46,929 nt of DNA from a virus (taxonomy: Duplodnaviria; Heunggongvirae; Uroviricota; Caudoviricetes). The position numbers and the translations under genes were made by a program. Positions within the stretch are counted from its first letter, which is position 1; each line of letters opens with the position of its first letter. The notes beneath the pieces were generated by a model. That model worked only from the letters and a program-made list of their open reading frames with translations. It did not search any database and was not told the DNA's origin. The stretch is from IMG/VR virus record IMGVR_UViG_2703718815_000012, positions 1 through 46,929 of that record. One strand, written 5' to 3'. Shown one piece after another: positions 1-46,929 of the stretch.

Positions 1-459
1 ATGTGTGGACGTTTCTCACAATCAATGACCCGCGATGACTATCTGGCTCTGCTGGCTGATGAATCCGATCGCGATATTCCCTATGACCCTGAACCAATCG
101 GGCGATTCAACGTGGCGCCAGGCACAAAAGTTTTGCTGCTGAGCGAACGTGACGAGCAGCTGCATCTCGATCCGGTGTTCTGGGGTTACGCGCCCGGATG
201 GTGGGATAAAGCCCCATTGATTAACGCACGTGTAGAGACCGCGGCATCCAGCAGAATGTTTAAGCCACTGTGGCAGCATGGCCGGGCGATTTGTTTCGCT
301 GACGGTTGGTTTGAATGGAAAAAGGAAAACGACAAGAAACAGCCCTACTTCATCCATCGTGCCGACGGGCAGCCAATATTTATGGGTCGGAGTTCAAGTA
401 TGATTTTTTATTGTCGTGATGACGAGCGTCAGCGAAATGGTGTAAAGTATTACCGTTAG
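1..459 (+). pseudogene. yedK: yedK 5' fragment (SOS-response-associated peptidase / abasic-site processing protein), disrupted after about codon 128
   Basis: ORF begins MCGRF (catalytic Cys2 of SRAP family) and reads YedK-like to ...GQPIFM (nt ~384), then an unrelated 24-codon tail and stop; full-length YedK is about 220 aa. Confidence 0.7.
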
Positions 460-6289: not shown

Positions 6290-6668
6290 AAGAAAAATAC
6301 TCCACTTTGGTGAATGCCCGCTGAATAACCAGCAACGAGTCCATGCGCACGCTTCCGTTCTCGCCGCGCGAGTGCAACGCCTGTCGGTTCAGCACCAGGC
6401 CAACGTGTGCCGGTTGCGCGCCGCGGTACCCGACGAATATCCCGCCTTCGATCGGTTTATCGACCTGGCGCCAGAAGACGACGTCACCCTGATAGCAGGT
6501 GAAGAAGTCCTCACCGGCTTCGTAGTCCGGTGTCTGGTGCAGCTCAATGCTGAGGACATGGCGGTAATACAGCACAACCAGCCCCCAGCAATCAGTCTTT
6601 TCGAATGAGCAGGCGCGGTTAGACCACGGCACGCCGATCACCTTGCGAACAAAATCAGAGGTATTCAT
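6276..6668 (-). CDS. tail-associated NlpC/P60-family (C40) cysteine peptidase
   Basis: 130-aa ORF with Cys (TDCWGLV) and His (AHVGLVL) spaced as in the NlpC/P60 fold; ATGA overlap with HNH gene stop. Confidence 0.5.
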   Translation of the reverse strand: MNTSDFVRKVIGVPWSNRACSFEKTDCWGLVVLYYRHVLSIELHQTPDYEAGEDFFTCYQGDVVFWRQVDKPIEGGIFVGYRGAQPAHVGLVLNRQALHSRGENGSVRMDSLLVIQRAFTKVEYFSYGVD

Positions 6669-7129
6669 GTGCCGTGCCTGCCAGTTACATCGCCGCTTCT
6701 CACTTCAGCAATAATTCTCGCCTCACAAGCTGAAGGGAAGTCAGGAAACCAACCAAGATGAGCATTTGCCAATCTTGCGCGCCACTCATTCCTTCTCTTC
6801 AAGAAATCCACGCCAGTAACACCTGATGTATTACCAGTTAGTTTTCTTTTATTCCTTGAGTTGACAGCTCTGCTAACCGCCCTGAGGTTATCTATGTTGT
6901 TATTTTTTTTATCACCATCAATATGATCAATTTCATGACCGTTAGGTATTTCACCATGGTGCATCTCATAAATAATCCTATGAACAAGCAATTGCTTTCC
7001 ATCAACGATTACAGAGAGATATCCTTGTGTAGTAGTCTTGTTTGGTGACCTTCCGTATCTGACACCACTCCTTCTTATATTCCAATATATCTTTCCATCA
7101 TCATATCTGAAAAGTTCATGCCAATTCAT
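6665..7129 (-). CDS. HNH homing endonuclease (NUMOD4-like N-terminus plus HNH_3 motif)
   Basis: HEIDHIDGDKKNNNIDNLR HNH motif, N-terminal DGKIYWNIRRSGV segment; AT-rich gene with AT-rich upstream spacer, sitting between two tail genes. Confidence 0.75.
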   Translation of the reverse strand: MNWHELFRYDDGKIYWNIRRSGVRYGRSPNKTTTQGYLSVIVDGKQLLVHRIIYEMHHGEIPNGHEIDHIDGDKKNNNIDNLRAVSRAVNSRNKRKLTGNTSGVTGVDFLKRRNEWRARLANAHLGWFPDFPSACEARIIAEVRSGDVTGRHGT

Positions 7130-7205
7130 ATAGAGACCTCAACCAGAAGATACAAATATATTTAATAAGAGCAAGAGAAGTAGCGCGCCTAATAATTATA
7201 CCACT

Positions 7206-7676
7206 TCATAAATATTGAAGCCCAGTATATTCGCGGGGGTCGTATAATTTCCCAATATTATTATTGAGTGGATTTGTAACAGAAAGGGTTACCGACGCTG
7301 AGTCTGCGTCGATGTCCACCGTCTTGACGTATAACTGCCACGACTTAATCGGCACCGACACATCGCCGCTGTCGAAGATCTGCCGGGTGGCCGTGATGGC
7401 CGTCAGACGGGCTGCACCCTTCCACTGTTTCATCAGCGCTTTGATATCCGACGACAGCCGCCCTAACTTCACCGTCGCGTCAATCACCGGCGTGCCGCTC
7501 TGCTGACTCTCTTCTATTTCAAAGCGCGCTGGCGTGTATGTCTGGCCGCCAAGTGTCTTCGGGAAGAACTGCTTATCGACCAGGCGGACGTAACCAAAGG
7601 ATGGGTGGTAGAACGTGATGGTGTCGTACAGCCCGCGCGTCGGGCGCTGCTGCTTATAAACTCTGAAGGTAGGCAT
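7206..7676 (-). CDS. tail protein (tail-tip complex component)
   Basis: 156-aa ORF in tail module; start overlaps upstream stop (TAATG). Confidence 0.45.
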   Translation of the reverse strand: MPTFRVYKQQRPTRGLYDTITFYHPSFGYVRLVDKQFFPKTLGGQTYTPARFEIEESQQSGTPVIDATVKLGRLSSDIKALMKQWKGAARLTAITATRQIFDSGDVSVPIKSWQLYVKTVDIDADSASVTLSVTNPLNNNIGKLYDPREYTGLQYL

Positions 7677-8173
7677 TACGGCACTCTCGGTAAAGATTCC
7701 GGGTCGCGCCCGTCAGGATAACCAGTAACAACGATATCTAGCCACGAATCCCACGGCGGCGGAAGTTCAACAATGATGTCGTCAAACTCGTCGTCAGCGT
7801 TGTAGAGGTGGTTTGCGATAACAGTTCCCGTCCAGGTCACCACCCCGCCGTCGATACTGGTTTGCACCGGCATCTGCGTGAAGTGAAGTTCCTGCAACTG
7901 CAGGCCACTGCCGCCAAGGTTGATATTCATCCGGAACCAGTTAAGGCCGCGGTTGAGATAGTTAGGGCTGCGCAGCCACTGCTGAAAAGCGCGCTCCTGG
8001 TCAAGAGTGAAGATCCACGTCAGGGACCATGTCACTTTCAGGTCGTCAGTAAGGCTCTGGAAGATAGCCGGGCCGACCGCTGGCTGATCGGTCTGGAACC
8101 CGGTATCGAGCGTCATGTTTTTGCTGGCCTTCTGCGCCAGCGGCAGCCAGTCGGGATAGTCGATAATTGGCAT
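7676..8173 (-). CDS. tail protein (distal tail / tail-tip complex component)
   Basis: 165-aa ORF following tape measure and small tail protein genes. Confidence 0.45.
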   Translation of the reverse strand: MPIIDYPDWLPLAQKASKNMTLDTGFQTDQPAVGPAIFQSLTDDLKVTWSLTWIFTLDQERAFQQWLRSPNYLNRGLNWFRMNINLGGSGLQLQELHFTQMPVQTSIDGGVVTWTGTVIANHLYNADDEFDDIIVELPPPWDSWLDIVVTGYPDGRDPESLPRVP

Positions 8174-8189
8174 CTAAACTCCAGGCATT

Positions 8190-8210
8190 AAAAAACCCGC
8201 CGAAGCGGGT
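8190..8210 (-). terminator. intrinsic terminator-like hairpin
   Basis: minus strand cccgc-ttcg-gcggg followed by TTTTTTAATG, between genes 8211..8441 and 7676..8173. Confidence 0.45.
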
Positions 8211-8441
8211 TTAATCTATGGCAGTTGGTCGTCTCGGAGCTTCAAAAATTTTAATGTTAAATTCTTGAATAGAGCCGTTACTCTTAAACTCAAGTGTCTC
8301 ACCTGCAGGAATAACACCGGCAATGTAAGTGCCATCTGTTAGCAAAAACTCAAAATTAACAGCCCGGTTAGCTGAGTATTTGACAACCTTCCCGCTTTCA
8401 AGTGGCATGCTTTTTGACTCGCCCGGCAAAATACTATCCAT
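8211..8441 (-). CDS. small tail protein
   Basis: ORF directly after tape measure gene; ATG at 8441 with GAGGG SD preferred over the TTG at 8453 used by the ORF track. Confidence 0.4.
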   Translation of the reverse strand: MDSILPGESKSMPLESGKVVKYSANRAVNFEFLLTDGTYIAGVIPAGETLEFKSNGSIQEFNIKIFEAPRRPTAID

Positions 8442-8449
8442 GTTCCCTC

Positions 8450-11400
8450 TCAATTTTGACCACGTGGAGTTCTTTTGGCATTGAAATTACTTGTTATGCC
8501 CTGAGAAATTGGACCACCATTATTTAGATCAGCAATGATGGCATCCACGGTTATTGTACCATCTCCACTACTCGTAGCCTGAGCATCAAATGTGGCTCCC
8601 GTCATATTCTGAACGTTGATTATGACGTTCACACCTCCGCCAGCATTCATCTCCTTATTGCTGATAACCTTGCCATTGTCGCCCGGTATCATGTACTGCT
8701 TACCGGTACTGGCCTGGTAAATCTCAGGTTTCCCTCGCTCACCGACCTGATAAAGACCTCCTGCATTCACCGGGCCGCCATTGTAACGCATACCGGTTAA
8801 AGCAAGGCCCTGTGCCAGGCCTATCGTTGAAGCAATTCCTGTCATGGCAGGAACTGAGTTACCACCAAAAGAAGCAAGGCTAGCAAAGGCTGCTGCCGGA
8901 GCCCATGCTTTAGCCAGAAATACAGCCTCCGTCGCACTGGCAGCAGTAGCCGCTGCGCCCAATGTCTGCCCTATAATGAAGTTTTTGAGGGCCTCAACAC
9001 CAACCTGGACTAGCGCATTGACCACGCTGTTCAGCATCGTATTCCCGAGTGAACGCATAGCATCCTGCGCTGACATCGTTCCGGTGATCAGCCCGGTTAA
9101 CGCATTGGATGCATTACCTGAAAACGCATCCACCGCGCTTGTCAGCATTTCATAACCAAGACCTTTCTGACTGAGCAATTGCCACTGAGCGGCTGTCATC
9201 TGCTCATTGAACTGGTTTTCCTGCGCAGTCTTTAAGGCAAGGTACTGGGCATCGGTAGCTGCCTTTGCAGCAACGAACTGATCGTAATTTATTTTCCCTT
9301 TTTGGTAACTTTGCTGGAGTATCGCCTGTTCCTGCTGCTGATATTGCTGCAGCAGGGCTAACTTCTGGTTATTTTCATTCACCAGTTGCTGTACCGGGTC
9401 AACTTCTGCTCGGGCAGAAGCTACCGGATTGACTGCGGCCTGGGCGTTAATCTTGGCGAGGTTATTCTGGTGCTCGAGCGCCATTTTCTCCGTGGCAGCG
9501 TTATACTCCTTGAGATCTATTTTCCCAGCGTTCAGTGCGGCCTTCAGATTTTGCATGGATTCGGCGTAGGATTTATTCTCCGCCTGCAAAGGCATTGCCT
9601 TAAGTGCTTCCGTAACCCCTTTGGCTGCCGCTGATGCATCCCATGCTTTTGCTGCATATTCACCGGCCTTTTTAATTTGCTCCTGGGTTGCAGAATTACC
9701 CAGTGACTGCTGAGCACGTAATATGGCCTGCTCTCTGCTTAGCTCCTCCGTTGAATCAGCTGCCAATTCTGACTGCTGCTTCAGATTCGCCAGCTTCTGA
9801 GCAACAGATTCAGCAGAAGACGCTGATTTCTTCCCCTGCCGCTCACTCTCTTGTTGAGATTTTTTTCTGGCTTCTTCTGACTTCTCTAAATCATAATTTT
9901 CAGCAGCCAGCCTGCCAGCTGCAGAGATTTGATTCTGATTGTCAGTGACCTTGGCAGCCTGCATCCTGGCTTTGGCTATCGCCCGCTCTCTCTCGTCCTG
10001 AATTTTAAGTAATTCATTCTGCTCTTCCAGAGTAGCGATAACTTTATCGCCCTCCTTGGTCGCGGGAGATATCTGCAGCGCTTTGTGGTCGAAGCTTTTT
10101 CCGGCCTGATTGGCTCGGTTTATTTCATCAGCCGTCTCCCCAAAGGCTTTCGCTACCGCACCCTGAACTTGCTCAAGAGACCAGGATTTTTCGATGAGTT
10201 GATCATGAACGCCCATCGCCGTAAGCATGTTGTTCGTGAGTGTGCGAGTCGCCTCAGACGCGGTTTCTTCTGTCCGGGATAATTTATCCTTTGCGGCCTC
10301 AAGATCTCGCGTCTTGCGAGCCAGTTCATCAGACACCTCCGCCTGTTGACGGGCGAAATCCGCACCTTGCCCCATAGATTCAGCAACTTCCTGCGCTGCC
10401 GGGGTAAAGTTCTGATATCTGTCTCTCAGCGAGTCAACTTCACTCTGCAGATCTGCTACATCCTCTTTCTGAGCTCGAATAGAATTATTGGCATCTGCAA
10501 TAGCCCCACGCAGCTGCGTGTTCGACATTGCATTCATGGCGGCGTTGAGCTTATCCAGACCATCGGCGAAGGCGATAGCCTCCTCTTTTGCCTGTTGAGC
10601 TTTCTGCCAGAAATAGAAGATCGCTCCGGCAGCAAGCATAGCCGCACCAGCTGGACCCCCTATAAGAGCAAGTGCACCACGGGCCATTCCGATACCAATT
10701 GACGCTGCACGAGCAGCGGTCGCTGCGCGGGCAGATGCTGCAGCCTGGGCAGTTTCAGCCTCGGCAAGAGCAAGAGATGCGGTAGTAGCACGAGTTTTTG
10801 CGGCCACAAGAGCATCCATTGCCAGCATCTCTGCAGCGCTACCTTTTGCCACGTTATATTCAGCCTGGGCCAGCGCGAGAGACGAAAGAGCAGCCTCTTT
10901 ATCAGCCAGAGCCTTACGCTGAGCAGAATTAGCAGCAACCAAAGCTGCTTGTGCCGCCTGACTCTCTGCAACAGCCTGCTGACGGGATGCTGCGATATCA
11001 GCGATTTTCGCTGAGGTAGCCATGGTCAGCGCACCGACATACCGCGCACCCATTACGCCGGCAACAATCGTGAGCGTAGTGCTGAGAACGTCCAGGTTTT
11101 CACTGAGAGAAATGACTGAATCACTGAATATTTTGACGCCAGTTTTTACAGTGGCATTCTCGCCAAAGAACTTCGTGATGTTGTTGTTGGCAATTTCAAG
11201 AGACTGGCTGATCGTGGCAGTAGTTTTAGCGAACTCCTGTCCAATTTTATCGCCCTGAGAAAGCAACCCATTCACGATCACATCAGTGGTTAACTTGCCC
11301 TCTGCAGCCATGTTTCTGAGCGCCCCAATGCTGACATTCATCGAGTCAGCAAGAGCAATCATGAGCCGGTTACCCTGCTCGTTCACAGAGTTAAATTCAT

Positions 11401-20747: not shown

Positions 20748-21995
20748 TTAGCGAAGGCGTTTCGGAATCATCATCCCAGCCATCTGGCCTTTGCGCTTAA
20801 TGTGTCCGTCGAGGCTATAGCGAATACCATCCCAGCAGTGCTCATAGCCATCGGCGAGCTTAGGCAACACCTCGCCAGTGATGCGGTCCGTTTTGTACGA
20901 CCACATGCGGGCCTCTCGCGCTACGTTCTTGCAGCGCGGATGGATAATGATTTCGTCGAATCCGCGAAGATGTGCAATACCGTCCTCAACGCTCCCCTGC
21001 CATTTCTCGGCGGCCGAGATGTTGAAGCCCTGCCGCTTGAGATAGCTGATCGTCTCGGGTCGAGCGGAGTCGGCCTTGATGGGCCAGTCACGCGCGCCTG
21101 GTATCGTGTCGTACAGCTCAGGCATGTGGTCGAGCTCTGTCTGCTGACCGTATGCCTCGTATTCGATGTAGAGCCGGTTGTGCAGGATGAACGAGCGAAC
21201 TAGCGTGTTGGGGTCTTTAGCGAAACCGAAGTCCGCGCCGAAGAACAACCGATCAGCCTCTTTCCAGAGGTTATCCGAGAACTCAGCAATCCGGTATTTA
21301 CCGGCCAGCACCTGCTTATCAGAGTTTTCGAGGTAAGCCCCCTCCCACACCCATGCGTATGTTGCCGGGTCGAGGCGTCGCTGATCGTTCTGTCTCTCAC
21401 CTTCCAGCACGTCAGGGAACCACGGGTTATCCGTGTAGTTCATTTCAACGGTGATGCAGTCGTCGCCAGCCTCTTTGCGGAAACGCTTATCCGTGGCGCT
21501 ACCGTCACGCTCCGGGTTCCACGTCACCCAAATCTCTGATCCCTCTTCACGAACGGTAGGACTCAGCTTCTGCCAGGCAATTTCGCTGACTGATTCAGCC
21601 TCGTCCACCCAGCACAATAGAATGCGCGCTTTCGACTTGATGCTGTCGAGGTTATGCCTAAGACCGCAGAACACGTAGTTAACGCTCTTGTCGATGGTGC
21701 GGATGTACTTCTCGCCGATATCAAAGTTGGAAGCCAGCCAAGGGACAGACAGGATCGCCTGCTTCACCTCCTGCATACTCGACTCTTCCAACGAGTTCAT
21801 GAACTCACGGGCGCAGAGCACCACGCCGCTTTCACCGTTCATCATCGACTGATAAGCCTTTACAGCAGTCATCAGGGCGAATGTGCGCGTCTTGGCGCTG
21901 CCGCGCCCACCGTGCGAACACCGGTAACGCTTATTCACGGCGGTGAACAGTGGTGCAAGCTTCGCGGGGATCGGCAGTTGAACGGCTTCACTCAT
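20748..21995 (-). CDS. terminase large subunit (PBSX / Terminase_3-type)
   Basis: N-terminal ATPase region (P-loop-like HGGRGSAKT, Walker B-like LLCWVDEAE) and C-terminal nuclease region; ATGA coupling to small subunit. Confidence 0.85.
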   Translation of the reverse strand: MSEAVQLPIPAKLAPLFTAVNKRYRCSHGGRGSAKTRTFALMTAVKAYQSMMNGESGVVLCAREFMNSLEESSMQEVKQAILSVPWLASNFDIGEKYIRTIDKSVNYVFCGLRHNLDSIKSKARILLCWVDEAESVSEIAWQKLSPTVREEGSEIWVTWNPERDGSATDKRFRKEAGDDCITVEMNYTDNPWFPDVLEGERQNDQRRLDPATYAWVWEGAYLENSDKQVLAGKYRIAEFSDNLWKEADRLFFGADFGFAKDPNTLVRSFILHNRLYIEYEAYGQQTELDHMPELYDTIPGARDWPIKADSARPETISYLKRQGFNISAAEKWQGSVEDGIAHLRGFDEIIIHPRCKNVAREARMWSYKTDRITGEVLPKLADGYEHCWDGIRYSLDGHIKRKGQMAGMMIPKRLR

Positions 21996-22447
21996 GCTTT
22001 CGGCTCAACAGGTAGTAACTGGATGATTGTCGGCTGCGGAGTCATGCTGCCATCAGGGCTTGTATGCTCGACTTTCTGGCGATTTGTGTAGGCATCGCCC
22101 ATTTCTTTGGCGGCCTGCTCGATAAGCTGCGAGGTCATGCCGTAGTTCTTCATCTTTTCAGCATTGGTCGCCATTCGGTCGAGAACGCGCAACCGGTACG
22201 CTTTATTTGCGATCGGAATGTCACCGATCTCATTCTGGAATCGTTTACGGGTAGCGTTGAACAGGTCAATCCACTTCTGGCTCAACTTGGCCGCCATTGC
22301 GTTGCCTGGCGTATATTGCGACACCTGCTGACGTGAGACATCGATGCCATATTCAGCCTTTACAAGCTCAATGACTTTTACCGGGGTCTCGTAGCAGGCG
22401 AGTGATTGAACGATGAAGGCTTTAACCTCTGTCGATAATGCTGCCAC
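21992..22447 (-). CDS. terminase small subunit (putative)
   Basis: 151-aa ORF upstream of and coupled to terminase large subunit; GTG start with GGAGG SD. Confidence 0.6.
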   Translation of the reverse strand: MAALSTEVKAFIVQSLACYETPVKVIELVKAEYGIDVSRQQVSQYTPGNAMAAKLSQKWIDLFNATRKRFQNEIGDIPIANKAYRLRVLDRMATNAEKMKNYGMTSQLIEQAAKEMGDAYTNRQKVEHTSPDGSMTPQPTIIQLLPVEPKA

Positions 22448-22478: not shown

Positions 22479-23117
22479 TTACGCCAGCTTCAACATGCAC
22501 GTCCCGCATGACCTGGCTATATCGATGTGAGCCACTTCTGCTGGCGCATTGGCCGCATCAACGAGCTCCTGTACTTCTTTGCTGGCACCGTATCGCCGTA
22601 CGACACCAGTGAATTCTTCGACGTCGTGGCCGCGCAGTGTAAGCACTGGCTGCCCGGTCTCTTTGTTGAACTTAGGCACGCCGAAATCATCGGTGTCCTG
22701 GGCGATGTGGTAAAGCTCATGCTCTACCAGTGCGCAGAATTCAAGGTCACTGCATTGTGAGCAGTAATCGGCTGCCAGCGTGATGATGAACTTCGGGATT
22801 CGTCCGAACCATTCATGCATCTGCTGTTCCATTCTGGCTTTCTGCCAGCCACCGGCGCGTAGCATTACCTGTTCAGCCTGACCGAGAACGTAGCGCCCTT
22901 TCTTCGCGAACGAGTCAGAGGCCCACATGAAGCAGAGATCAGCCTCTAACAGGTGCTCGTGGTCAGAGTTATGGATGCTTCCGGTGTCGCTGAGGATTTG
23001 GCGGTTTATCCACTCATGCACTTCGTTGGCGGGGATCAGCCTGGTGTATGGCTGCCAGTTGTCGGAGTCGATGAAGTCGACTGGCGGATATGGCCTGCGA
23101 TCGTCATCGTTATCCAT
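22479..23117 (-). CDS. hypothetical protein with HExxH motif (putative metallopeptidase-like)
   Basis: 212-aa ORF containing HELYH; first gene of the packaging block. Confidence 0.35.
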   Translation of the reverse strand: MDNDDDRRPYPPVDFIDSDNWQPYTRLIPANEVHEWINRQILSDTGSIHNSDHEHLLEADLCFMWASDSFAKKGRYVLGQAEQVMLRAGGWQKARMEQQMHEWFGRIPKFIITLAADYCSQCSDLEFCALVEHELYHIAQDTDDFGVPKFNKETGQPVLTLRGHDVEEFTGVVRRYGASKEVQELVDAANAPAEVAHIDIARSCGTCMLKLA

Positions 23118-23150
23118 ATCTTACTCCGTTCATTCGATCGCTATTTAAAT

Positions 23151-23183
23151 GTGATTTGCTCCTCATGATTTGCTCAAAATCAC
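23151..23183 (+). promoter_or_regulatory. operator-like repeat cluster upstream of plus-strand moron
   Basis: direct repeat TGATTTGCTC x2 (23152..23161, 23166..23175) nested in inverted repeat GTGATTT...AAATCAC; followed by TAAGGAGG SD and ATG at 23237. Confidence 0.4.
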
Positions 23184-23236
23184 TCAATAATTCCTACTTT
23201 TAGTCGATTATTGAAGAGGTTTCATAAGGAGGAACT

Positions 23237-23575
23237 ATGGGTATTGAAGAGAACTTGCTCGAAACACTGTTAAAGCATGATGTTTTCCATAATGAAGATG
23301 GCAAAGTATCAGGCATTGCCAAGCTTGCTATCGACAAAGGATATGCAACTTTATCGCCAGCACAAAAGAGAGTATTACAACCGTTTATGAGTCATGGTTG
23401 TGAGGGTTACACCGATCCTGGTGGACATCACAACGGTTGCGGAAAGGTTCTTGAAGGTGCAGAGCTTGATGAAGCTTATGAGCATACCTGGGAACATGGC
23501 GGCTTAGTCTGCGAAGACTGTCGCGAACAAAGTGATTATGACGATTACCGTCGTGAAAGGTTCATGAAAGACTAA
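23237..23575 (+). CDS. hypothetical Cys/His-rich protein (moron, 112 aa)
   Basis: only plus-strand gene in the late region; strong SD, own upstream repeats, own terminator; HGCEGY...HHNGCG...CEDC suggests metal binding. Confidence 0.55.
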   Translation: MGIEENLLETLLKHDVFHNEDGKVSGIAKLAIDKGYATLSPAQKRVLQPFMSHGCEGYTDPGGHHNGCGKVLEGAELDEAYEHTWEHGGLVCEDCREQSDYDDYRRERFMKD

Positions 23576-23581
23576 TGTTTC

Positions 23582-23614
23582 GGCCTATCTAACGGTAGGC
23601 CTTTCGCTTTTCCC
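23582..23614 (+). terminator. intrinsic terminator between convergent genes
   Basis: ggccta-tctaacgg-taggcc followed by tttcgcttttccc, 7 nt after the stop. Confidence 0.6.
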
Positions 23615-23619
23615 TTCCT

Positions 23620-23835
23620 TTACTCACTTTCTTCTGTTGACTGGTTGGCCTGCTCTGCCGGTACTGGCGTGAACTGCACGCGCTTCACATCGGCCGGTGC
23701 GAAATACAGCCACTCGCCTGAATCAGTCGCCAGCGGCACAAAGCCATTAACCAACTCAGGCTGACGTCGTGACATCTTGCCCGTGAAGGTTTCGCCTGTT
23801 TGAGTGGTTAGCGTGATTTGGTAGATGTCGGACAT
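23620..23835 (-). CDS. hypothetical protein (71 aa)
   Basis: ATG 23835 with GAGGG SD (track ORF starts at GTG 23847). Confidence 0.4.
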   Translation of the reverse strand: MSDIYQITLTTQTGETFTGKMSRRQPELVNGFVPLATDSGEWLYFAPADVKRVQFTPVPAEQANQSTEESE

Positions 23836-23912: not shown

Positions 23913-24497
23913 TTATTTTGCAGTTTTGTATTCAATAAACCCGTCAAAAATCAGACTATCGATGGTCATCATTTTCGTAAGTTTTTCCATAACCTCAGGA
24001 TTTTCTTGCATATCAACAAGCCATCTCCTCACGCCATTAGCTATATCATTACATAACTCAATAACATCTAATTGCAGAACACCATTAAAAGCATTCATAT
24101 GTGCATGAAGGTTTTCTCGCGCAGGGGTCGTTATCTTAAACTTCCTTAGCTTCGTTTCATCAACGCCTTCATGCAAACATGCATTCCTTAAACTCCAACA
24201 GTCTTCTGCAGTGAATGAGACTACGGGTTTTTGCGCCCTTAAGCTTTGCTTTATTCCTTCAGGCATGCTCTGAACCATTGCAGGGCTGGTGAGACTTAAA
24301 TAGTCATACATGTTATCAGCGTTATATCTTGGCTTAAGATAGCGATTAAACCAGTCCTTGTACCTCGCGCCATTTCCTTTGATTTTATCCTCTGTCGCGC
24401 CACAGATGTCAGGAAGTGATATTGCTATGAATAAAGCACCAAACCAATTCTTTTTAGACAAGCAATCATCTATTCCACTCAGCAACTGTTGCATATA
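23913..24497 (-). CDS. hypothetical protein, AT-rich moron (194 aa from ATG 24497; 220 aa if started at 24575)
   Basis: codon composition much more AT-rich than neighbours; SD AAGGTG before ATG 24497; C-terminal helical region contains RENLHAH (R-x5-H), reminiscent of a HEPN motif. Confidence 0.5.
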   Translation of the reverse strand, partial: YMQQLLSGIDDCLSKKNWFGALFIAISLPDICGATEDKIKGNGARYKDWFNRYLKPRYNADNMYDYLSLTSPAMVQSMPEGIKQSLRAQKPVVSFTAEDCWSLRNACLHEGVDETKLRKFKITTPARENLHAHMNAFNGVLQLDVIELCNDIANGVRRWLVDMQENPEVMEKLTKMMTIDSLIFDGFIEYKTAK

Positions 24498-24562: not shown

Positions 24563-25024
24563 TTACTTCAAGCACTGAGTGCTTAGATATTCCTGAAGAT
24601 AGCCAACCTGCTTCATCACTGTGGCGATTCTTTCTCTGAGGGTGAAATAATCCCGTTCAGCGGAGTCAGTAAGTCGGGGGCCGGAAGCATCGCCCATGCC
24701 GCTGGAGCCGGTCGTTCCGTTCGCGGGACAGTTTGCGTTGAGCTGCAGCCGCTTACGGCCAGCAATGACATCGCTATGCAGACGCTCAATGGTTTCTTTC
24801 GCATCAGCTAGTTCTCCGGTGTATTTGGCATCCAGTGCAGCGACATCACGCTGGCGGGCCTGCATGTCTTTTATGGTGGTGTTAGCCAGGCTGAGTTTCT
24901 CAGTGGCTTTATCGCGCTGGTCTTTATAAGCGATGGCGTTGTCGCGGTAGTGGTTAATCGCCCAGGCCATGGAAACGAGCAGGCAGATAACGACAGCACA
25001 GATGATTGCTGTTAATCGGCTCAT
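24563..25024 (-). CDS. Rz: i-spanin Rz
   Basis: N-terminal TM anchor then coiled-coil periplasmic domain; ATG 25024 overlaps endolysin stop; lipoprotein gene embedded in another frame. Confidence 0.8.
24616..24804 (-). CDS. Rz1: o-spanin Rz1 (outer-membrane lipoprotein) embedded in Rz
   Basis: signal peptide ending in lipobox VSGC, Pro-rich mature part, entirely inside Rz in a different frame. Confidence 0.75.
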
Positions 25025-25515
25025 TTCTGGCCCCACTCGCAAACTTCGCGCTCAATCTCGCGCCGGGTTATCAGTCCCTTCCACTGCTTGCCACCGGCAT
25101 ACGTCCAGCGTTGCAGTTCTTTGCATGCCCCCGGCACGTCTCCGGCGTTCAGCTTCTTCAGCAGCGTCGAGCTGGCAAAAGCACCAGAGCCAACGTTATA
25201 GGTGAAGGAGTAAAGCGCGGCGCGGGTTGGCTCAGGAATGCGAACCTTGATCAGCGGGTCGATAGCATTTGCCACCTTTCGCAGATCGGCCTTCAGCATG
25301 TTGTCGCACTCTTTGTCGGTGTATCGGTGACCGCGGCGAATGTCCGCTCCGGTGTGCCCATCGCAAACAGTCCAGACGCCGACCACATCCTGATAGGCGT
25401 AATAGCGCCGTCCTTCCAGCCCATCGGCATTGCCCAGCATTACTGCAGCAATGGTGATGGCTCCGGATCCGCCAACAATGGCACCCACCAGCTTATTCCT
25501 CAACGTTGGGTTCAT
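25021..25515 (-). CDS. SAR endolysin (T4-type lysozyme, P21 R-like)
   Basis: N-terminal Gly/Ala-rich signal-arrest-release TM ([20 protein letters not shown]), catalytic core LEG...[10 protein letters not shown], conserved C-terminus [13 protein letters not shown]. Confidence 0.85.
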
Positions 25516-25896: not shown

Positions 25897-25972
25897 TGGT
25901 GCTGATTGACGGAGTTGAACCGCCGACATCCTGCTTACAAGGCAGGCGCTCTACCTACTGAGCTAAATCAGC
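25897..25972 (-). tRNA. tRNA-Thr (anticodon UGU)
   Basis: 76-nt cloverleaf on minus strand: acceptor stem GCTGATT/AATCAGC, D-arm AGCTCAGTAGGTAGAGC, anticodon stem CCTGC/GCAGG with loop CUUGUAA, T-arm GGCGG-TTCAACT-CCGTC, encoded CCA. Confidence 0.85.
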
Positions 25973-26064: not shown

Positions 26065-26565
26065 TCATTGAAAAGCAAGCACGTTGTGAACATTTTTTGC
26101 AACTTTGTTCACATTATCGCGGCTGATAAAGGCATTTTGCAGCGGTTGATACAGGCAGAACAGTGCCGCGTTAAGTGTTTCCTTCACCTCCCGGCGTATG
26201 GTGGATATGCTCGGGTGCTTATACTGATTCCCGCCACGCGTCTTCATCACTCGAGGTTTGCTCACAGCGTGCTGCCAGCTGGCGATGCGGATCTCACTGG
26301 AGTTGCAGACGTAATAGGCGAAGACAACACGCCAGGCGTTCTCGTCGATATTTTTCAGGTAATGGCGCAGCACTGCGTCAATCAGCATACCGTCGTCGTC
26401 GCTACATACCGGGCGAGATGCCTGCTGCGGTTCGACGGTCGCCATAAACTTGGCAATCATGTTGATCATCGCCTTGTCTATCTTCCCGGTCTGCGACCAT
26501 GCACCCCACAACTGGAGCCACTGATCAATCCACTGATGCTGCTCGTTGGTTAATTCCAGTTTCAT
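26065..26565 (-). CDS. Q: late-gene antiterminator Q (putative)
   Basis: 166-aa ORF at end of nin region, immediately upstream of the terminator-tRNA-lysis cassette; AGAAGGAGG SD. Confidence 0.6.
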   Translation of the reverse strand: MKLELTNEQHQWIDQWLQLWGAWSQTGKIDKAMINMIAKFMATVEPQQASRPVCSDDDGMLIDAVLRHYLKNIDENAWRVVFAYYVCNSSEIRIASWQHAVSKPRVMKTRGGNQYKHPSISTIRREVKETLNAALFCLYQPLQNAFISRDNVNKVAKNVHNVLAFQ

Positions 26566-29296: not shown

Positions 29297-29562
29297 AACG
29301 CCTCCTGTTGGTTTTACATCGCCAAATGAATGTACCACCATGCAAGAGGAAATGAAGCAGTTAAATTGTAAAACATGTGTATATATCAATGAGTTAAAAT
29401 AGTTTGCTATTTTTCTTACAGCCTTGCTGCGTCGAATGGGTTAGGCATGGCGACCTCTACACGAGCTGAAAATATAAGCCGCTACAGCCAAATCCTGAAT
29501 TGCTGTTATTGCCAGCATCCAACCATAAATGCTGTCATTGAAATGCCACGCCAGCGCTGTAA

Positions 29563-29778
29563 TCACGGCTTCACCTCCTTAGCCGTTTTGACGATTGCAG
29601 CGAGGCACTTCTTGCATGGAACCTGCAATGAACCCTGCTCAATGCTCAACAGTGCATGCTGAGCGTCCTGAAACAACCAGTCAGAAAATTGAGGCTTATG
29701 TCCGCACCATGTTTCTGTTTCATGCTTCGCAAGTTTTACGCCGTCACGATAGTCATATTTGATGATGTGATTACTCAC
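29563..29778 (-). CDS. hypothetical protein (71 aa)
   Basis: ORF coupled by ATGA to upstream Lar-like gene. Confidence 0.45.
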   Translation of the reverse strand: MSNHIIKYDYRDGVKLAKHETETWCGHKPQFSDWLFQDAQHALLSIEQGSLQVPCKKCLAAIVKTAKEVKP

Positions 29779-34838: not shown

Positions 34839-34901
34839 ATAACCCAAGTTATGACCATTGTCCATAACCTTTGTTATTTTACTCTGCATAACCTGAGTTA
34901 T
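34839..34901. promoter_or_regulatory. OR operator region: three 14-bp operators ATAACC-N3-GTTAT
   Basis: ATAACCCAAGTTAT (34839..34852), ATAACCTTTGTTAT (34864..34877), ATAACCTGAGTTAT (34888..34901); last operator ends 11 nt before the cI ATG. Confidence 0.7.
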
Positions 34902-34912
34902 ATATTGGCGCT

Positions 34913-35617
34913 ATGAAAACATTCGCAGATCGACTCAACGCGGCTATGAGAGCCGCAGGCATATCCCAAGGGCAGCTGGCTGAGAAAGTCGGCATATCTC
35001 AACCTGCAATTCAGAAAATGACATCAGGCAAAACCACAGGCAGCCGTAAGATGGTTGAGCTTGCTCATGCATTGAACGTGCGTCCGGAATGGCTCAGTTC
35101 GGGCATAGGCTCAATGCAGGACGAAGGACGCAAGGACTCCGCTATCCCACCAGAATCGGAATGGGGTAAAGTTGACGCTTGGGATAGCAAAACAGATCTG
35201 CCAGATGACGAGGTCGAAGTGCCATATCTGAAAGATATAGAACTTGCGTGTGGTGATGGTTCCTGCTTGGAAGATGACTATAACGGATTCAAACTTCGTT
35301 TTGCGAAGTCTACCCTTCGTAAGGTGGGAGCCCAGAAAGATAGCGTGCTGTGCTTCCCGGCATCAGGAAATAGCATGGAGCCCATGATCCCGGAAGGGAC
35401 GACGGTCGCCATCAACACGAACGACAAAAAGATCGTTGATGGCAAGGTTTATGCAATAAGCCAGGACGGATGGAAAAGGCTAAAATCCATTTATCGTGTG
35501 AGTCCTACCCGCATCGTGATTCGCAGCTTCAACAGTGAAGAGTACCCAGATGAAGAAGCGGATATCGAGAGCGTAGAGATTATTGGTCGCATGTTCTGGA
35601 CATCTACTATCTGGTAA
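34913..35617 (+). CDS. cI: CI-type repressor (HTH plus LexA-like S24 peptidase domain)
   Basis: N-terminal HTH (ISQGQLAEKVGISQPAIQKM), C-terminal S24 autocleavage domain with Ser in GNSMEP and Lys in WKRLK. Confidence 0.85.
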   Translation: MKTFADRLNAAMRAAGISQGQLAEKVGISQPAIQKMTSGKTTGSRKMVELAHALNVRPEWLSSGIGSMQDEGRKDSAIPPESEWGKVDAWDSKTDLPDDEVEVPYLKDIELACGDGSCLEDDYNGFKLRFAKSTLRKVGAQKDSVLCFPASGNSMEPMIPEGTTVAINTNDKKIVDGKVYAISQDGWKRLKSIYRVSPTRIVIRSFNSEEYPDEEADIESVEIIGRMFWTSTIW

Positions 35618-35631
35618 TCAAGAGGGAAGGG

Positions 35632-36321
35632 ATGAAATTAGAACTAATAGCATTATCTTTACTGGCTTTAACTACGAACGCAATCGGCTCTAGCACCCTG
35701 AGCTGCGATTACGCTAAGTCGGACATCAGTAATGGAGCTAATGCTCCAATGATTCCTGGCGGAAAAGGCACTGTCGAATTTGATGGAAAATCCTTTAAAG
35801 CCACACGTCCAAATGGTGGTGTGATCATTTCACCAATAATCAGTGAACAAAAAAATGGAATGCTTTTTCTTGACGACAAGACAAAAGTGTTCGCGGCAAG
35901 CCTTTCTAAAACTGATTTCGCTATCTCTGACCGAATTGCTCGAATTACTGAGCAATGGGCCAACTGCATTGATGTTAGTCCATCGCCGAACAATTCAGAT
36001 AACGACAAACCGGCAACTGCCTGGAAATATAGGTCTCTCACGAAGCAGGAGATAAATGCTGTTGAGGCAGCAGTGAAAGACCAATTGAAGGATCCAGAAA
36101 GTGCCAGATTCAAGCACTCTAAGTTTGTGAGCAACGGGAAAGGCGCTTACTGCGGCCTGGTTAATTCCAAAAACTCATATGGCGGCTATGCTGGAAACAC
36201 TCCTTTCATGGTCATGCTTATCAACAATGGCAAACCTCACGCTGGCTTTATTGGTATGGGCGGAGATGATGCCGAGACCCTGTCAACGCTATCCGTCTGC
36301 AAAGACAGTGGTTATTTCTAA
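35632..36321 (+). CDS. secreted protein of unknown function (immunity-region moron)
   Basis: 229-aa ORF with N-terminal signal peptide MKLELIALSLLALTTNAIG; AT-rich; co-oriented with and immediately downstream of cI. Confidence 0.55.
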   Translation: MKLELIALSLLALTTNAIGSSTLSCDYAKSDISNGANAPMIPGGKGTVEFDGKSFKATRPNGGVIISPIISEQKNGMLFLDDKTKVFAASLSKTDFAISDRIARITEQWANCIDVSPSPNNSDNDKPATAWKYRSLTKQEINAVEAAVKDQLKDPESARFKHSKFVSNGKGAYCGLVNSKNSYGGYAGNTPFMVMLINNGKPHAGFIGMGGDDAETLSTLSVCKDSGYF

Positions 36322-36426: not shown

Positions 36427-36489
36427 ATAACTTATGTGATGATAATTATAAATTAGGTTATTGCCATCACTCATAACTAAGGTTATCTT
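36427..36489 (+). promoter_or_regulatory. OL-like operators and PL-like promoter
   Basis: three 14-mers related to the OR sites (ATAACTTATGTGAT 36427..36440, ATAAATTAGGTTAT 36448..36461, ATAACTAAGGTTAT 36473..36486) overlapping -35 TTGCCA (36461..36466) and -10 TATCTT (36484..36489), 17-nt spacer. Confidence 0.55.
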
Positions 36490-44236: not shown

Positions 44237-44335
44237 CGGAAGTAAACAGCATCAGCGCATCGCCGTGTGGCGGGTGACATCCCGCCAAATAACGACGATC
44301 AACTGAACATCAACACATTATATGTACATACGACC

Positions 44336-45427
44336 ATGAACATTCAGATCAAAACACTATCTGTCCGAATTAAAGACAAGCACGCAGCCGTTTTGCGGCA
44401 GATGGCCTTTGAGGTCAATCAGATCTTTAATCTGGCAAACGAGATAACCAGCGTAGCATACGGCAACGCTGGCTTTTTTGGCGCGCAAAAACCGCAATGG
44501 CTATCGGCGTTTGATGTTCAGAAACCGCTCCTTAAAGAGCGAAAAGAGCGCGGGTATACCATCCCCAGCCATACCGTACAGGAAATCGCAGCAATTCACG
44601 GCAAGGCACGGAAGCAATTTAAACGCTCTCGCTTACGCTGGCGAGTCAGTGGGGGATCTCGCCGTTCGTTGGGTTGGGTGCCGTTTAAAATAGGCAGCGC
44701 TGTCTGGAAAAATGGCGCGGTGCGGTTCGCTGGCAGGATTTTTAATGTCTGGGATAGCTACGGCTTGGGAGGATTTAAATTCCGTGCTGGAAGCTTTTCA
44801 GAAGACAGCCGTGGACGCTGGTACTTCAATGTTTGCGTAGAGGTCGAAACTGTCCCATCAACGGCCACTTCCGCCGTGGGTATCGATTTAGGGCTGAAAG
44901 ACTACGCCACCCCGTCAGAAGGTGATCCGCTGATTGCCGGTAGATTCTATCGAGATCTGGAGCCTGCATTAGGAAAGGCACAGCGTGCAAACAAAAAAGC
45001 CCGTGTACGCGCCATACACGCCAAAATTAAGAACCGCCGCAAAGATGCCCTGCACAAGTACAGCACGGCGCTGGTTAACAGCCATGCGGCAATATTCGTA
45101 GGCGACGCGAGCAGTAAGAAACTGGTTAAAACCAAAATGGCAAAAAGCATTTTGGACGCTGGCTGGTTCATGCTCAAAACACAACTGGAATATAAAGCGA
45201 TTGCGCGGTCAGTGGTGTTTGAAGTGGTCAACGAAAGTTATTCCACCCAAGCTTGTTCGTGTTGCGGGGCTATCTCCGCCAACAGTCCGAAAGGTAGAGC
45301 AGGCCTGCGAATAAGAGAATGGACTTGTTGTGAGTGCGGAACCACTCATGACCGCGACGTGAACGCCGCAAAGAACATTCTCGCGGCGGGGCATCGCCGT
45401 CTAGCTGTAGGAATCCCCTTCCTTTAG
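44336..45427 (+). CDS. tnpB: TnpB (IS200/IS605 OrfB-type RuvC-like RNA-guided endonuclease)
   Basis: RuvC-I GIDLG, C-terminal zinc finger CSCCG...CCECG, RuvC-III RDVNAAKNI; ATG 44336. Confidence 0.75.
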   Translation: MNIQIKTLSVRIKDKHAAVLRQMAFEVNQIFNLANEITSVAYGNAGFFGAQKPQWLSAFDVQKPLLKERKERGYTIPSHTVQEIAAIHGKARKQFKRSRLRWRVSGGSRRSLGWVPFKIGSAVWKNGAVRFAGRIFNVWDSYGLGGFKFRAGSFSEDSRGRWYFNVCVEVETVPSTATSAVGIDLGLKDYATPSEGDPLIAGRFYRDLEPALGKAQRANKKARVRAIHAKIKNRRKDALHKYSTALVNSHAAIFVGDASSKKLVKTKMAKSILDAGWFMLKTQLEYKAIARSVVFEVVNESYSTQACSCCGAISANSPKGRAGLRIREWTCCECGTTHDRDVNAAKNILAAGHRRLAVGIPFL

Positions 45428-45551: not shown

Positions 45552-45767
45552 ATGAATGACAGCATCCTGGTTACAAGCGAAATCCTTGCGCGCTACAAAA
45601 TATCGCGCAGCACGCTCTATTTCTGGAGCACTCCCGCACGTATGCCATCCAGCTTTTCATGCCCATTCCCGAAACCAACCATCCCCGGAAATCCGAAGCG
45701 CTGGCGTGAGTCAGAAATCAAGTCATGGGAAGACAAGGTCAACTTTGCTAAAGGGGATACCCAATAA
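45552..45767 (+). CDS. AlpA-family excisionase / transcriptional regulator
   Basis: ATG 45552; ILARYKISRSTLYFW...FPKP...PKRWRESEIKSW resembles AlpA/Xis HTH family; converges on integrase. Confidence 0.6.
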   Translation: MNDSILVTSEILARYKISRSTLYFWSTPARMPSSFSCPFPKPTIPGNPKRWRESEIKSWEDKVNFAKGDTQ

Positions 45768-46929
45768 TCTCCTGCAAATGCTTCTGCCAGATATCCAGCC
45801 ATTCATGCTGATCGTCCATATAGTCATGAAGGTTGTATCTGGCCATAACCCCGCCCATCTGATGTCCGAGCAACTTTTCTATAACGTGTGGTGGAGCGCC
45901 AAGCTCGGACAGGCGCGTGGCCACCGTTCTCCGCAAATCATGTAATGACCACTCCTTCATTCCGTTCTTACGCACTACCTGCATTGAGTACGTCGAGACA
46001 AGCGTCTGCCCAGGTGGGACATCTTCTTTATCCCGGAACTGTGCTGGAGTCAGAACGTGCTTAGTGATTGATCCGCGTTGATGCTCTTGCAGAAGCCTGA
46101 CCGCAGTATCCGGCAACGCACGACGAATAGTTTTACCGGTCTTATAATCCTCTGCCGGCACAGTCCATGACCTTTCTTTGAAATCGAACCACTCCCATCT
46201 CGACTTTCTTATTTCTGCGGCGCGGCATCCGGTTAGAATCATGAACCTGATTACCAGTTGTTGAGAGGGAGGCAGAGAGAAAAGAGTATCCCACACCTGC
46301 TTTATCTCACTATCTGAAAGCCGCCTCTCCTTCATCTTCGCTGCTATACCGACATCCGATTTTCGTAACGACTCCAGTGGATTGGTTTTGATTACTCCCC
46401 TGTTGTGGCAGAACCGGAAAGCACGCTTGGTCAGAGACAGCATCTCACCTGATATGACACTCCTCCCCATTGCATCGAAAACCTCAAGCCAGTTCGCCTT
46501 CACTGTCTGGTCCACAATAGCCTTCCCTAGCCGCGGGCTAATGTGCTTTTTGAAGCTTTTACCGTTCGCATCAATTTTAATGAGCCCCTCCGGGATACAG
46601 TAATGCTTCACCCAGTACTCATAGGCCTCATCGACTGTCAGCGCTTCTATTCTTTCAGCCTTCTCCACCAGCACTTTCTGCCGGGGATCATACCCCTCGC
46701 TCAACCACGCTCTGAACTGCTGTCTTCTGTCTCTCGCCTGAGAGAGTGAAATAGTTGGATAGTCACCAATGCTTAACTGCACAGGCTTGCCCTGCCAGCG
46801 ATACCGATAGAAGAATGTGATAGAACCGGTTATGCTTAGACGCACATTCAGTCCGTTTGAATCAGAGAGAACCTCAACCTTCTCCCTGCGCTTTCCGAGC
46901 GACTTTCGTAACTTAGTATCTGTGAGCAC
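45748..46929 (-). CDS. int: tyrosine integrase (P4-type); 5' end at or just beyond window edge
   Basis: N-terminal LTDTKLRK...YRYRWQGKPVQLSIGDYP arm-type domain and C-terminal catalytic region HDLRRT...LLGH...Y; ORF runs to the last base of the window. Confidence 0.85.
   Translation of the reverse strand: MLTDTKLRKSLGKRREKVEVLSDSNGLNVRLSITGSITFFYRYRWQGKPVQLSIGDYPTISLSQARDRRQQFRAWLSEGYDPRQKVLVEKAERIEALTVDEAYEYWVKHYCIPEGLIKIDANGKSFKKHISPRLGKAIVDQTVKANWLEVFDAMGRSVISGEMLSLTKRAFRFCHNRGVIKTNPLESLRKSDVGIAAKMKERRLSDSEIKQVWDTLFSLPPSQQLVIRFMILTGCRAAEIRKSRWEWFDFKERSWTVPAEDYKTGKTIRRALPDTAVRLLQEHQRGSITKHVLTPAQFRDKEDVPPGQTLVSTYSMQVVRKNGMKEWSLHDLRRTVATRLSELGAPPHVIEKLLGHQMGGVMARYNLHDYMDDQHEWLDIWQKHLQEIIGYPL

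Follow-up and report, generated by a model that had tools for sequence, protein, structure and literature searches.

What is a lone plus-strand gene doing at the junction of the lysis and packaging genes of a prophage, where the genes around it are read from the other strand? This question was raised by IMG/VR virus record IMGVR_UViG_2703718815_000012, of which positions 1 to 46,929 were analyzed as one stretch of DNA (called the window from here on). The window is a lambdoid prophage whose head and tail genes extend to position 525. A compact plus-strand unit occupies positions 23149-23611 within approximately 34 kb of minus-strand prophage genes. It is made up of a leader, a strong Shine-Dalgarno sequence, an open reading frame (ORF) for a protein of 112 aa and a terminator of its own, placed antisense at the lysis-terminase junction. 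This unit is very probably a moron, i.e. a mobile single-gene accessory module. As the best explanation of the locus as a whole we propose, at a probability of roughly 0.4, an antisense moron whose product acts as a stand-alone binder in the conflict between mobile elements and their hosts.

The strand layout of the window was inspected between positions 525 and 34802. All other ORFs with family support in this interval are located on the minus strand. The longer plus-strand ORFs overlap minus-strand genes, two of which have Pfam support (lysozyme and Q), and the exception left is a plus-strand ORF of 71 aa at 29447-29662. A first-pass annotation, made from the sequence alone, had described the cassette gene as the only plus-strand gene in about 35 kb of minus-strand late genes. 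No other supported plus-strand ORF was indeed found from 525 to 34802. However, the late genes extend only from 525 to 25717 (about 25 kb), and the region from 26 to 34.8 kb represents the early-right, nin and replication arm.

The ORF of 339 bp (23237-23575, plus strand) encodes an acidic cytoplasmic protein of 112 aa (pI 4.9) with a predicted C4 zinc site. The sequence HGCEGY...HHNGCG...CEDC, already reported in the first-pass annotation, is present in this product. Comparison with 12 relatives revealed dN/dS ratios of 0.04-0.16, and four cysteine residues (C55, C68, C92 and C95) are invariant in an alignment of 26 sequences which reaches down to 43% identity. By these measures of conservation, the ORF is a real gene under strong purifying selection. 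In the same alignment P61, G62, G63, H65, N66 and E93 are invariant or nearly so, whereas H65 is the only one of the seven histidine residues that is nearly invariant. The conserved N-terminal helix reads GIAKLA-DKGF--LS-AQK-VL. All 26 members are acidic with pI values of 4.4-5.05, and the net charge is approximately -11.

Searches for relatives of the protein revealed 29 clusters (90% identity) among 5.8 billion proteins. A full HMMER pass over 1.84 billion representatives yielded 74 clusters, all of 37-180 aa, with full-length family matches of approximately 99-122 aa. No fusions and no distant relatives that would name a domain were present among these 74 clusters from the exhaustive profile search. 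An identical protein is on record in E. coli, and the 90% cluster spans E. coli, Citrobacter, Kosakonia, Enterobacter and Salmonella. The region as such was found in 2 of 5426 complete E. coli genomes, with 90% nucleotide identity, and the gene is encoded by a single one of 50,697 deposited phage genomes. Neither the single protein nor all 26 members together gave a relative among Pfam, NCBIfam or PADLOC families or PDB sequences. The sole database match was phrog_12178, a family of unknown function, apart from matches to the zinc-finger families B-box, LIM and SCAND3, which were at noise level and not significant. A literature search with the protein accessions and the PHROG identifier turned up no publication.

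The location of the cassette was then compared with that in related phages. The GC content is 0.35-0.47 over positions 23100-23500 versus 0.52-0.59 in the flanking late genes. The gene for a putative phage metallopeptidase (PF18894; 22479-23117, minus strand) forms one late-operon flank; it is divergent from the cassette and lies outside the unit. On the other flank the small gene ORF75 (phrog_6581; 23620-23835, minus strand) is convergent with the cassette. Its start codon is probably the ATG of MSDIYQ (approximately 71 aa) and not the listed GTG. Homology with Klebsiella phages, which share the metallopeptidase, ends at position 23107, and homology with Enterobacter phage BHUENT6, which shares the downstream small gene, begins at 23647. 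A Yersinia prophage is homologous from 23237 to 23605 only, i.e. over the ORF and its terminator. Since these mosaic boundaries (23107, 23237, 23605 and 23647) coincide with the edges of the unit, they point to an autonomous mobile cassette.

In total, 77 IMG/VR loci and additional NCBI prophages were examined. Homologues with 41-98% identity were found between the Rz/lysozyme clusters and the terminase or metallopeptidase cluster, and in 50 of 81 viral loci the gene runs opposite to both of its recurrent neighbours. In a Serratia-type group the gene resides between the small and the large terminase genes. ORF75 is the convergent neighbour in 36 loci and also occurs without the cassette; in one example it retains 85% identity next to a cassette protein of 42% identity. 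This uncoupled divergence indicates that ORF75 and the cassette recombine independently. In BHUENT6 (locus L019) the small terminase gene directly abuts the ORF75 homologue; consequently, the slot is empty in this phage. Klebsiella phage 2 LV-2017 carries another opposite-strand ORF in the slot between metallopeptidase and Rz (L018, 1250-1861, plus strand). This ORF of 203 aa has an HxK...GSxN motif and weak matches to PLD and NgoFVII restriction endonuclease (REase) families, with E values of approximately 3e-4 that are below the Pfam cut-off. The lysis-terminase junction is a cargo slot in this phage group. The independent, accessory-type unit postulated at the outset is supported by the GC dip, by the breakpoints at the unit edges and by the antisense orientation in the majority of the viral loci.

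The gene is not confined to prophages. A tblastn search detected it in 36 plasmid records, 32 of them conjugative; the two conjugative records that were typed are IncX1 and IncU. Homologues in marine and other gammaproteobacteria can be assigned as integron cassettes on the basis of the attC sites by which they are bounded. These imperfect palindromes of 63-136 nt (RYYYAAC...GTTRRRY, e.g. GCCTAAC...GTTAGGC) directly adjoin the gene in at least five loci, and foldable sites were obtained for L031, L038, L040, L043 and L046. The same core sequences are visible in L007, L008, L028 and L042. An attC site either starts right after the stop codon or ends approximately 40-55 nt upstream of the start codon. 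The attC-bounded copies originate from Ferrimonas, Oceanimonas, Marinobacter, Halomonas/Vreelandella, Gayadomonas and one Desulfurivibrio metagenome-assembled genome (MAG). The window copy is not accompanied by an attC site. As judged from these genomic contexts, the gene moves among prophages, conjugative plasmids and integron cassettes.

The neighbours of the gene were analyzed by clustering of 1616 ORFs from 126 loci. No constant partner gene was found in this set, recurrence being limited to genes for phage structure and lysis. When 120 non-phage neighbours were scanned against Pfam and PADLOC, no family recurred either; AbiD/Abi_2, DpnII-MboI-like REase domain, PD-(D/E)XK, type I methyltransferase and NYN proteins are among them. 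The lack of a recurrent partner suggests that the protein works alone. On the IncX1 plasmid the gene immediately precedes an Abi_2 (AbiD-type) gene, with a gene for a DpnII-MboI-like REase domain in the vicinity. A Pantoea plasmid encodes a member of this REase-domain family and an Abi_C protein close to the homologue. On the IncU and Pseudomonas plasmids the gene lies beside helix-turn-helix (HTH) or toxin-antitoxin genes. The IncX1 plasmid pE1-TEM (L012, 8718-10572) and the Pantoea plasmid (L014, 6205-7771) thus both carry the same REase-domain protein of 262 aa and a HEPN-type Abi protein near the homologue. The two plasmids are unrelated and their arrangements differ; this pair may represent a small shared accessory or defence module.

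A structural model of the protein was calculated with AlphaFold2 using the family alignment. The predicted local distance difference test score (pLDDT) was 93.7 and the predicted template modelling score (pTM) 0.80. The model shows helices from residue 3 to 50, a beta-hairpin region (52-73), helices from 74 to 87 and a long C-terminal helix which begins at C92-x2-C95. C55 and C68 are positioned on the beta-hairpin around a DPGGHHN loop. Two cysteine residues on a hairpin and two at the start of a helix fit a structural C4 zinc site, and the invariance of all four residues makes such a site plausible. A metal-binding domain had been suspected before from the sequence motif of this Cys- and His-rich protein. 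The cysteine residues are in agreement with this proposal; the histidine residues other than H65 are not conserved. With two ligands from the beta-hairpin region and two from the helix N-terminus, the predicted site resembles treble-clef and zinc-ribbon proteins. In contrast to these, the first pair of ligands spans the conserved DPGGHHN loop at a spacing of 12 residues, and no CxxC knuckle is present.

The ORF is preceded by a conserved non-coding leader or regulatory block (23149-23236, plus strand) which travels with the gene. Of the 11 closest relatives, 10 share the 87 nt upstream of the ATG at 90-97% identity, with dS values of the ORF of 0.08-0.43, mostly 0.3-0.4. The stretch between the leader block and the metallopeptidase start is variable among close relatives. 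The block is kept in a locus with a changed upstream neighbour (L065) and is missing from Klebsiella phages that possess the same metallopeptidase. Because the leader is more conserved than the synonymous sites of the ORF and stays with the gene when the neighbour changes, sequence comparison identifies it as a constrained cis element of the cassette. The first-pass annotation had made its proposal depend on the conservation of repeats and ORF in related prophages; both the constraint on the ORF and the identity of the leader in the closest relatives speak in its favour. The Shine-Dalgarno sequence TAAGGAGG (23225-23232) is located 4 nt before the ATG at 23237, as noted in the first-pass annotation, which had described it as near-perfect. 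Its AAGGAGG core is unchanged in 14 relatives.

The nested direct and inverted repeats noted before in the leader are also present. The direct repeat TGATTTGCTC occurs in exactly two copies (23152-23161 and 23166-23175), which are nested inside GTGATTT (23151-23157) and AAATCAC (23177-23183). A second inverted repeat, which had not been noted earlier, consists of TCAATAAT (23184-23191) and ATTATTGA (23207-23214). For a spacer of 119 nt with 34% GC a 10-nt direct repeat has a chance probability of approximately 0.02, whereas the inverted repeats of 7-8 nt are within chance expectation (P 0.09-0.29). Among the family homologues compared, conservation of the upstream repeats is limited to the closest relatives. 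In the group with 42-47% identity the TerS start codon is only approximately 29 nt upstream of the gene, and integron copies have an attC site in place of the leader. The operators of the resident repressor have the form ATAAC-N4-GTTAT. Three of them are found at the presumed OR (34839-34901) and three at the presumed OL (36427-36486), flanking a cI-like region (34913-36321); 8 such palindromes with at most one mismatch were found versus 0.7 expected. A function of the leader as an operator of the resident cI was rejected, as no such site exists within 23100-23240 and the leader repeats are unlike it. The repeats formerly taken for an operator thus differ from the cI operators of the prophage and are confined to close relatives.

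The search for a promoter also gave a result that differs from the expectation of the first-pass annotation, which had named promoter prediction as a check: no sigma-70 promoter stands out. A consensus scan of the leader gave no site at the 9/12 threshold. With consensus and position weight matrix (PWM) together, no sigma-70 promoter above background was found in the window or in the relatives. Weak candidates are TCAATA-16-GATTAT, with a predicted transcription start near 23218, and TTGCTC-17-CCTACT. The promoter of the cassette is thus probably weak or factor-dependent. A CRP-like site, TGTGATTTGCTCCTCA (AAATGTGAT...), matches TGTGA-N6-TCACA with 2 mismatches and would lie approximately 40 nt upstream of the start deduced from the -10-like AATAAT. 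It is regarded as speculation only, since the window contains 22 such matches versus 20.8 expected. A structured RNA leader or riboswitch was rejected as well (fold z-score 0.02, no Rfam match).

Downstream of the ORF an intrinsic terminator was identified at 23582-23611, composed of GGCCTATCTAACGGTAGGCC and the tail TTTCGCTTTT with an 8-bp stem and a 4-nt loop. It is present on the plus strand only: read on the minus strand, the hairpin is followed by GAAACATT, which lacks a T-run. The hairpin is conserved in relatives, and the homology with the Yersinia prophage reaches 23605. A terminator-like site after the stop codon was observed in 19 of 50 distinct viral loci and in 38 of 405 random windows. 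Consequently, the cassette possesses its own plus-strand terminator, as had been postulated; however, this terminator is neither bidirectional nor shared with the convergent gene.

Accessory loci which are active in lysogens characteristically run antisense to the lytic genes, and in lambda both bor and lom are expressed by the prophage (PMC7067206). The orientation antisense to the late operon and the cassette's own terminator suggest that the cassette is transcribed independently of the lytic genes, from its position most probably in the lysogen. Its promoter, of low strength or dependent on an activator, would reside within the conserved leader. The protein alone might stoichiometrically bind or inhibit a conserved target, either a protein or a nucleic-acid-binding factor of an incoming element. 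The carrier cell would thereby gain in conflicts with phages or other mobile elements by means of a small single-protein defence or exclusion system. We rank such a cell-protective role first because the gene is kept by chromosomal integrons and plasmid accessory regions and occupies a lysogenic-conversion slot beside other defence-type cargo; even so, the assignment of a host-protective conflict function, be it defence or exclusion, is tentative and slightly more probably wrong than right. In V. cholerae 18% of the integron cassettes of unknown function that were tested, 16 in number, were found to be anti-phage, the smallest of which encodes a protein of 64 aa (bioRxiv 10.1101/2024.07.02.601686). 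Independent capture by three mobile platforms without a partner marks functions which are of benefit in whatever host they enter, for instance those of minimal proteins for defence or counter-defence. In its wider form, our tentative proposal is that the family may be a single-protein, zinc-dependent module of new fold in phage-host or element-element conflict, serving as defence, exclusion or inhibitor of defence, and exchanged among prophage slots, conjugative plasmids and integron arrays.

Several observations weigh against this interpretation. PADLOC models gave no match at E values up to 0.1. The structural model has no fold relative in PDB or BFVD, a negative which holds for those two libraries only, and zinc binding is a prediction. 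The best sigma-70 PWM score was 5.3 compared to a background median of 5.7. The link to defence genes is anecdotal, and plasmid accessory regions, integron arrays and prophage junctions hold many kinds of cargo. Finally, small size and acidity in the absence of an effector domain are no less typical of anti-defence inhibitors and immunity proteins than of defence.

This last point leads to the alternative of counter-defence, in which the acidic, zinc-stabilised protein would block a nuclease or RNase of the host or of a rival element, as an inhibitor or as a nucleic-acid mimic, and so help the phage or plasmid to establish. The protein is small, uniformly acidic and free of an enzymatic domain, and it is carried on phages and conjugative plasmids. 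Its alleles in the same slot are 42-100% identical, while the ORF75 copies beside them mostly retain 83-86% identity, a pattern that an arms race would be expected to produce. HEPN-type proteins are encoded nearby, namely Abi_2 on the IncX1 plasmid, Abi_C in Pantoea, a 418-aa protein with the motif RNRNVH (L010) and a HEPN-like ORF near the cassette in the window (23913-24494). We nevertheless regard counter-defence as rather unlikely. Genes for lysogenic conversion classically lie antisense in the late operon and end at a terminator of their own, unlike the early anti-defence genes of temperate phages. On the IncX1 plasmid examined the gene is found by the replication/partition region, and chromosomal integron cassettes argue for a benefit to the cell. 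Moreover, the gene occurs in just one deposited phage genome (1/50,697), and the 25 listed neighbour families include no known anti-defence gene. A role as an orphan protein of the immunity or antitoxin type that neutralises a basic toxin (a HEPN RNase, a bacteriocin or a contact-dependent toxin) appears improbable. Size, acidity and helical content do resemble colicin-type immunity proteins, HEPN genes are found nearby in the four contexts just named, and toxin-antitoxin genes are over-represented in integron arrays. However, no toxin gene is tightly coupled to the gene, the nearest same-strand HEPN genes being separated from it by 131-380 nt, and most prophage loci are without any HEPN neighbour.

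Marginally less probable again is a small zinc-finger regulator that binds DNA or RNA polymerase, possibly autoregulates via the repeats and reprograms host or prophage transcription. Ogr/Delta, Com and TraR are small zinc-finger phage regulators and provide precedents, and the repeat-bearing leader is constrained in close relatives. The net charge of approximately -11 and the lack of a match to any HTH family are difficult to reconcile with such a role. Since the repeats are limited to the closest relatives, there is no family-wide operator, and the integron-cassette copies are without such a leader. A degenerate HNH/His-Me-finger nuclease, possibly a packaging accessory like the terminase-adjacent HNH proteins, is disfavoured and very improbable. 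The name 'HNH endonuclease' is attached to one UniRef record of the 90% cluster, an HHN tripeptide is present in a Cys-braced beta-hairpin, and in phages the gene is always found beside terminase genes. In spite of this, no HNH model from Pfam or NCBIfam matched any of the 26 members at E values up to 10. H65 and N66 are adjacent, no conserved metal-binding His or Asn follows C92-x2-C95, and the model did not resemble the beta-beta-alpha-metal fold of solved HNH nucleases. Furthermore, the protein is acidic, its gene is on the strand opposite to the terminase genes, and copies are found on plasmids and in integron cassettes, which do not package DNA.

Further features of the window and of related loci were recorded. 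The genes for the large terminase subunit (Terminase_3; 20748-21995) and the small terminase (DUF2280; 21992-22447) are on the minus strand on one side of the cassette. On the other side the minus strand carries Rz (24563-25042), lysozyme (25021-25515; Pfam support), a phage-borne tRNA-Thr gene with anticodon TGT (25897-25972), which separates the Q antiterminator gene from the lysis genes, and Q itself (26065-26565; Pfam support). The cI-type repressor gene is located at 34913-35617 on the plus strand, directly followed by an ORF of 229 aa without a Pfam family (35632-36321, plus strand), which may be accessory cargo; in lambda the slot downstream of cI is occupied by rexAB. A TnpB-type protein with OrfB_IS605 and Cas12f1-like TNB domains is encoded inside the prophage (44267-45427, plus strand) beside the integrase gene (45748-46929, minus strand). 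A fragment of an SOS-response associated peptidase (SRAP) gene at the left end of the window (1-459, plus strand), beyond the tail genes, may be accessory cargo as well. In a prophage locus of an Erwinia MAG (L024) the cassette gene is present as a truncated copy, and approximately 1.2 kb from it a pyocin/colicin-type bacteriocin of 785 aa (6568-8925, minus strand) is encoded, whose DNase domain is 53% identical to the colicin E9 DNase. Immunity to this pyocin-type DNase, the only bacteriocin nearby, was considered as a function of the protein and rejected, as the bacteriocin gene is separated from the cassette gene by over 1.2 kb, has the opposite orientation and is adjoined by small ORFs of its own.

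The proposed antisense moron can be compared with several known systems. With the anti-phage integron cassettes (Darracq et al., bioRxiv 10.1101/2024.07.02.601686) it shares a single small ORF which is attC-flanked in several marine gammaproteobacteria, and a family without a recognisable domain that is also found on other mobile elements. In contrast to those cassettes, no phenotype is known for this family and no PADLOC model matches it. Ocr, ArdA and the colicin Im proteins are likewise small, strongly acidic and without an enzymatic domain, are carried on phages and conjugative plasmids and have divergent alleles. However, they show no sequence or fold similarity to the window protein and lack its Cys4 site, and the genomic position of the cassette is not that of early or leading-region genes. 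The position itself, between Rz and the packaging genes and opposite to late transcription, is that of bor on the lambda map. The products differ: Bor is an exported outer-membrane lipoprotein, whereas the window protein is acidic, has four conserved cysteine residues and no detectable Bor similarity, and by inspection shows no obvious N-terminal hydrophobic segment or lipobox. The genetic units are nevertheless alike, since the cassette, by analogy with bor and lom, would be a compact unit with its own signals, a GC content unlike that of its flanks and, as a moron, no necessity for the lytic cycle. As a unit it would be ordinary, a textbook moron in the bor position. It is the protein which is noteworthy: belonging to no family and without a fold relative in PDB or BFVD, it is a rare and constrained Cys4 protein with a confident structural model.

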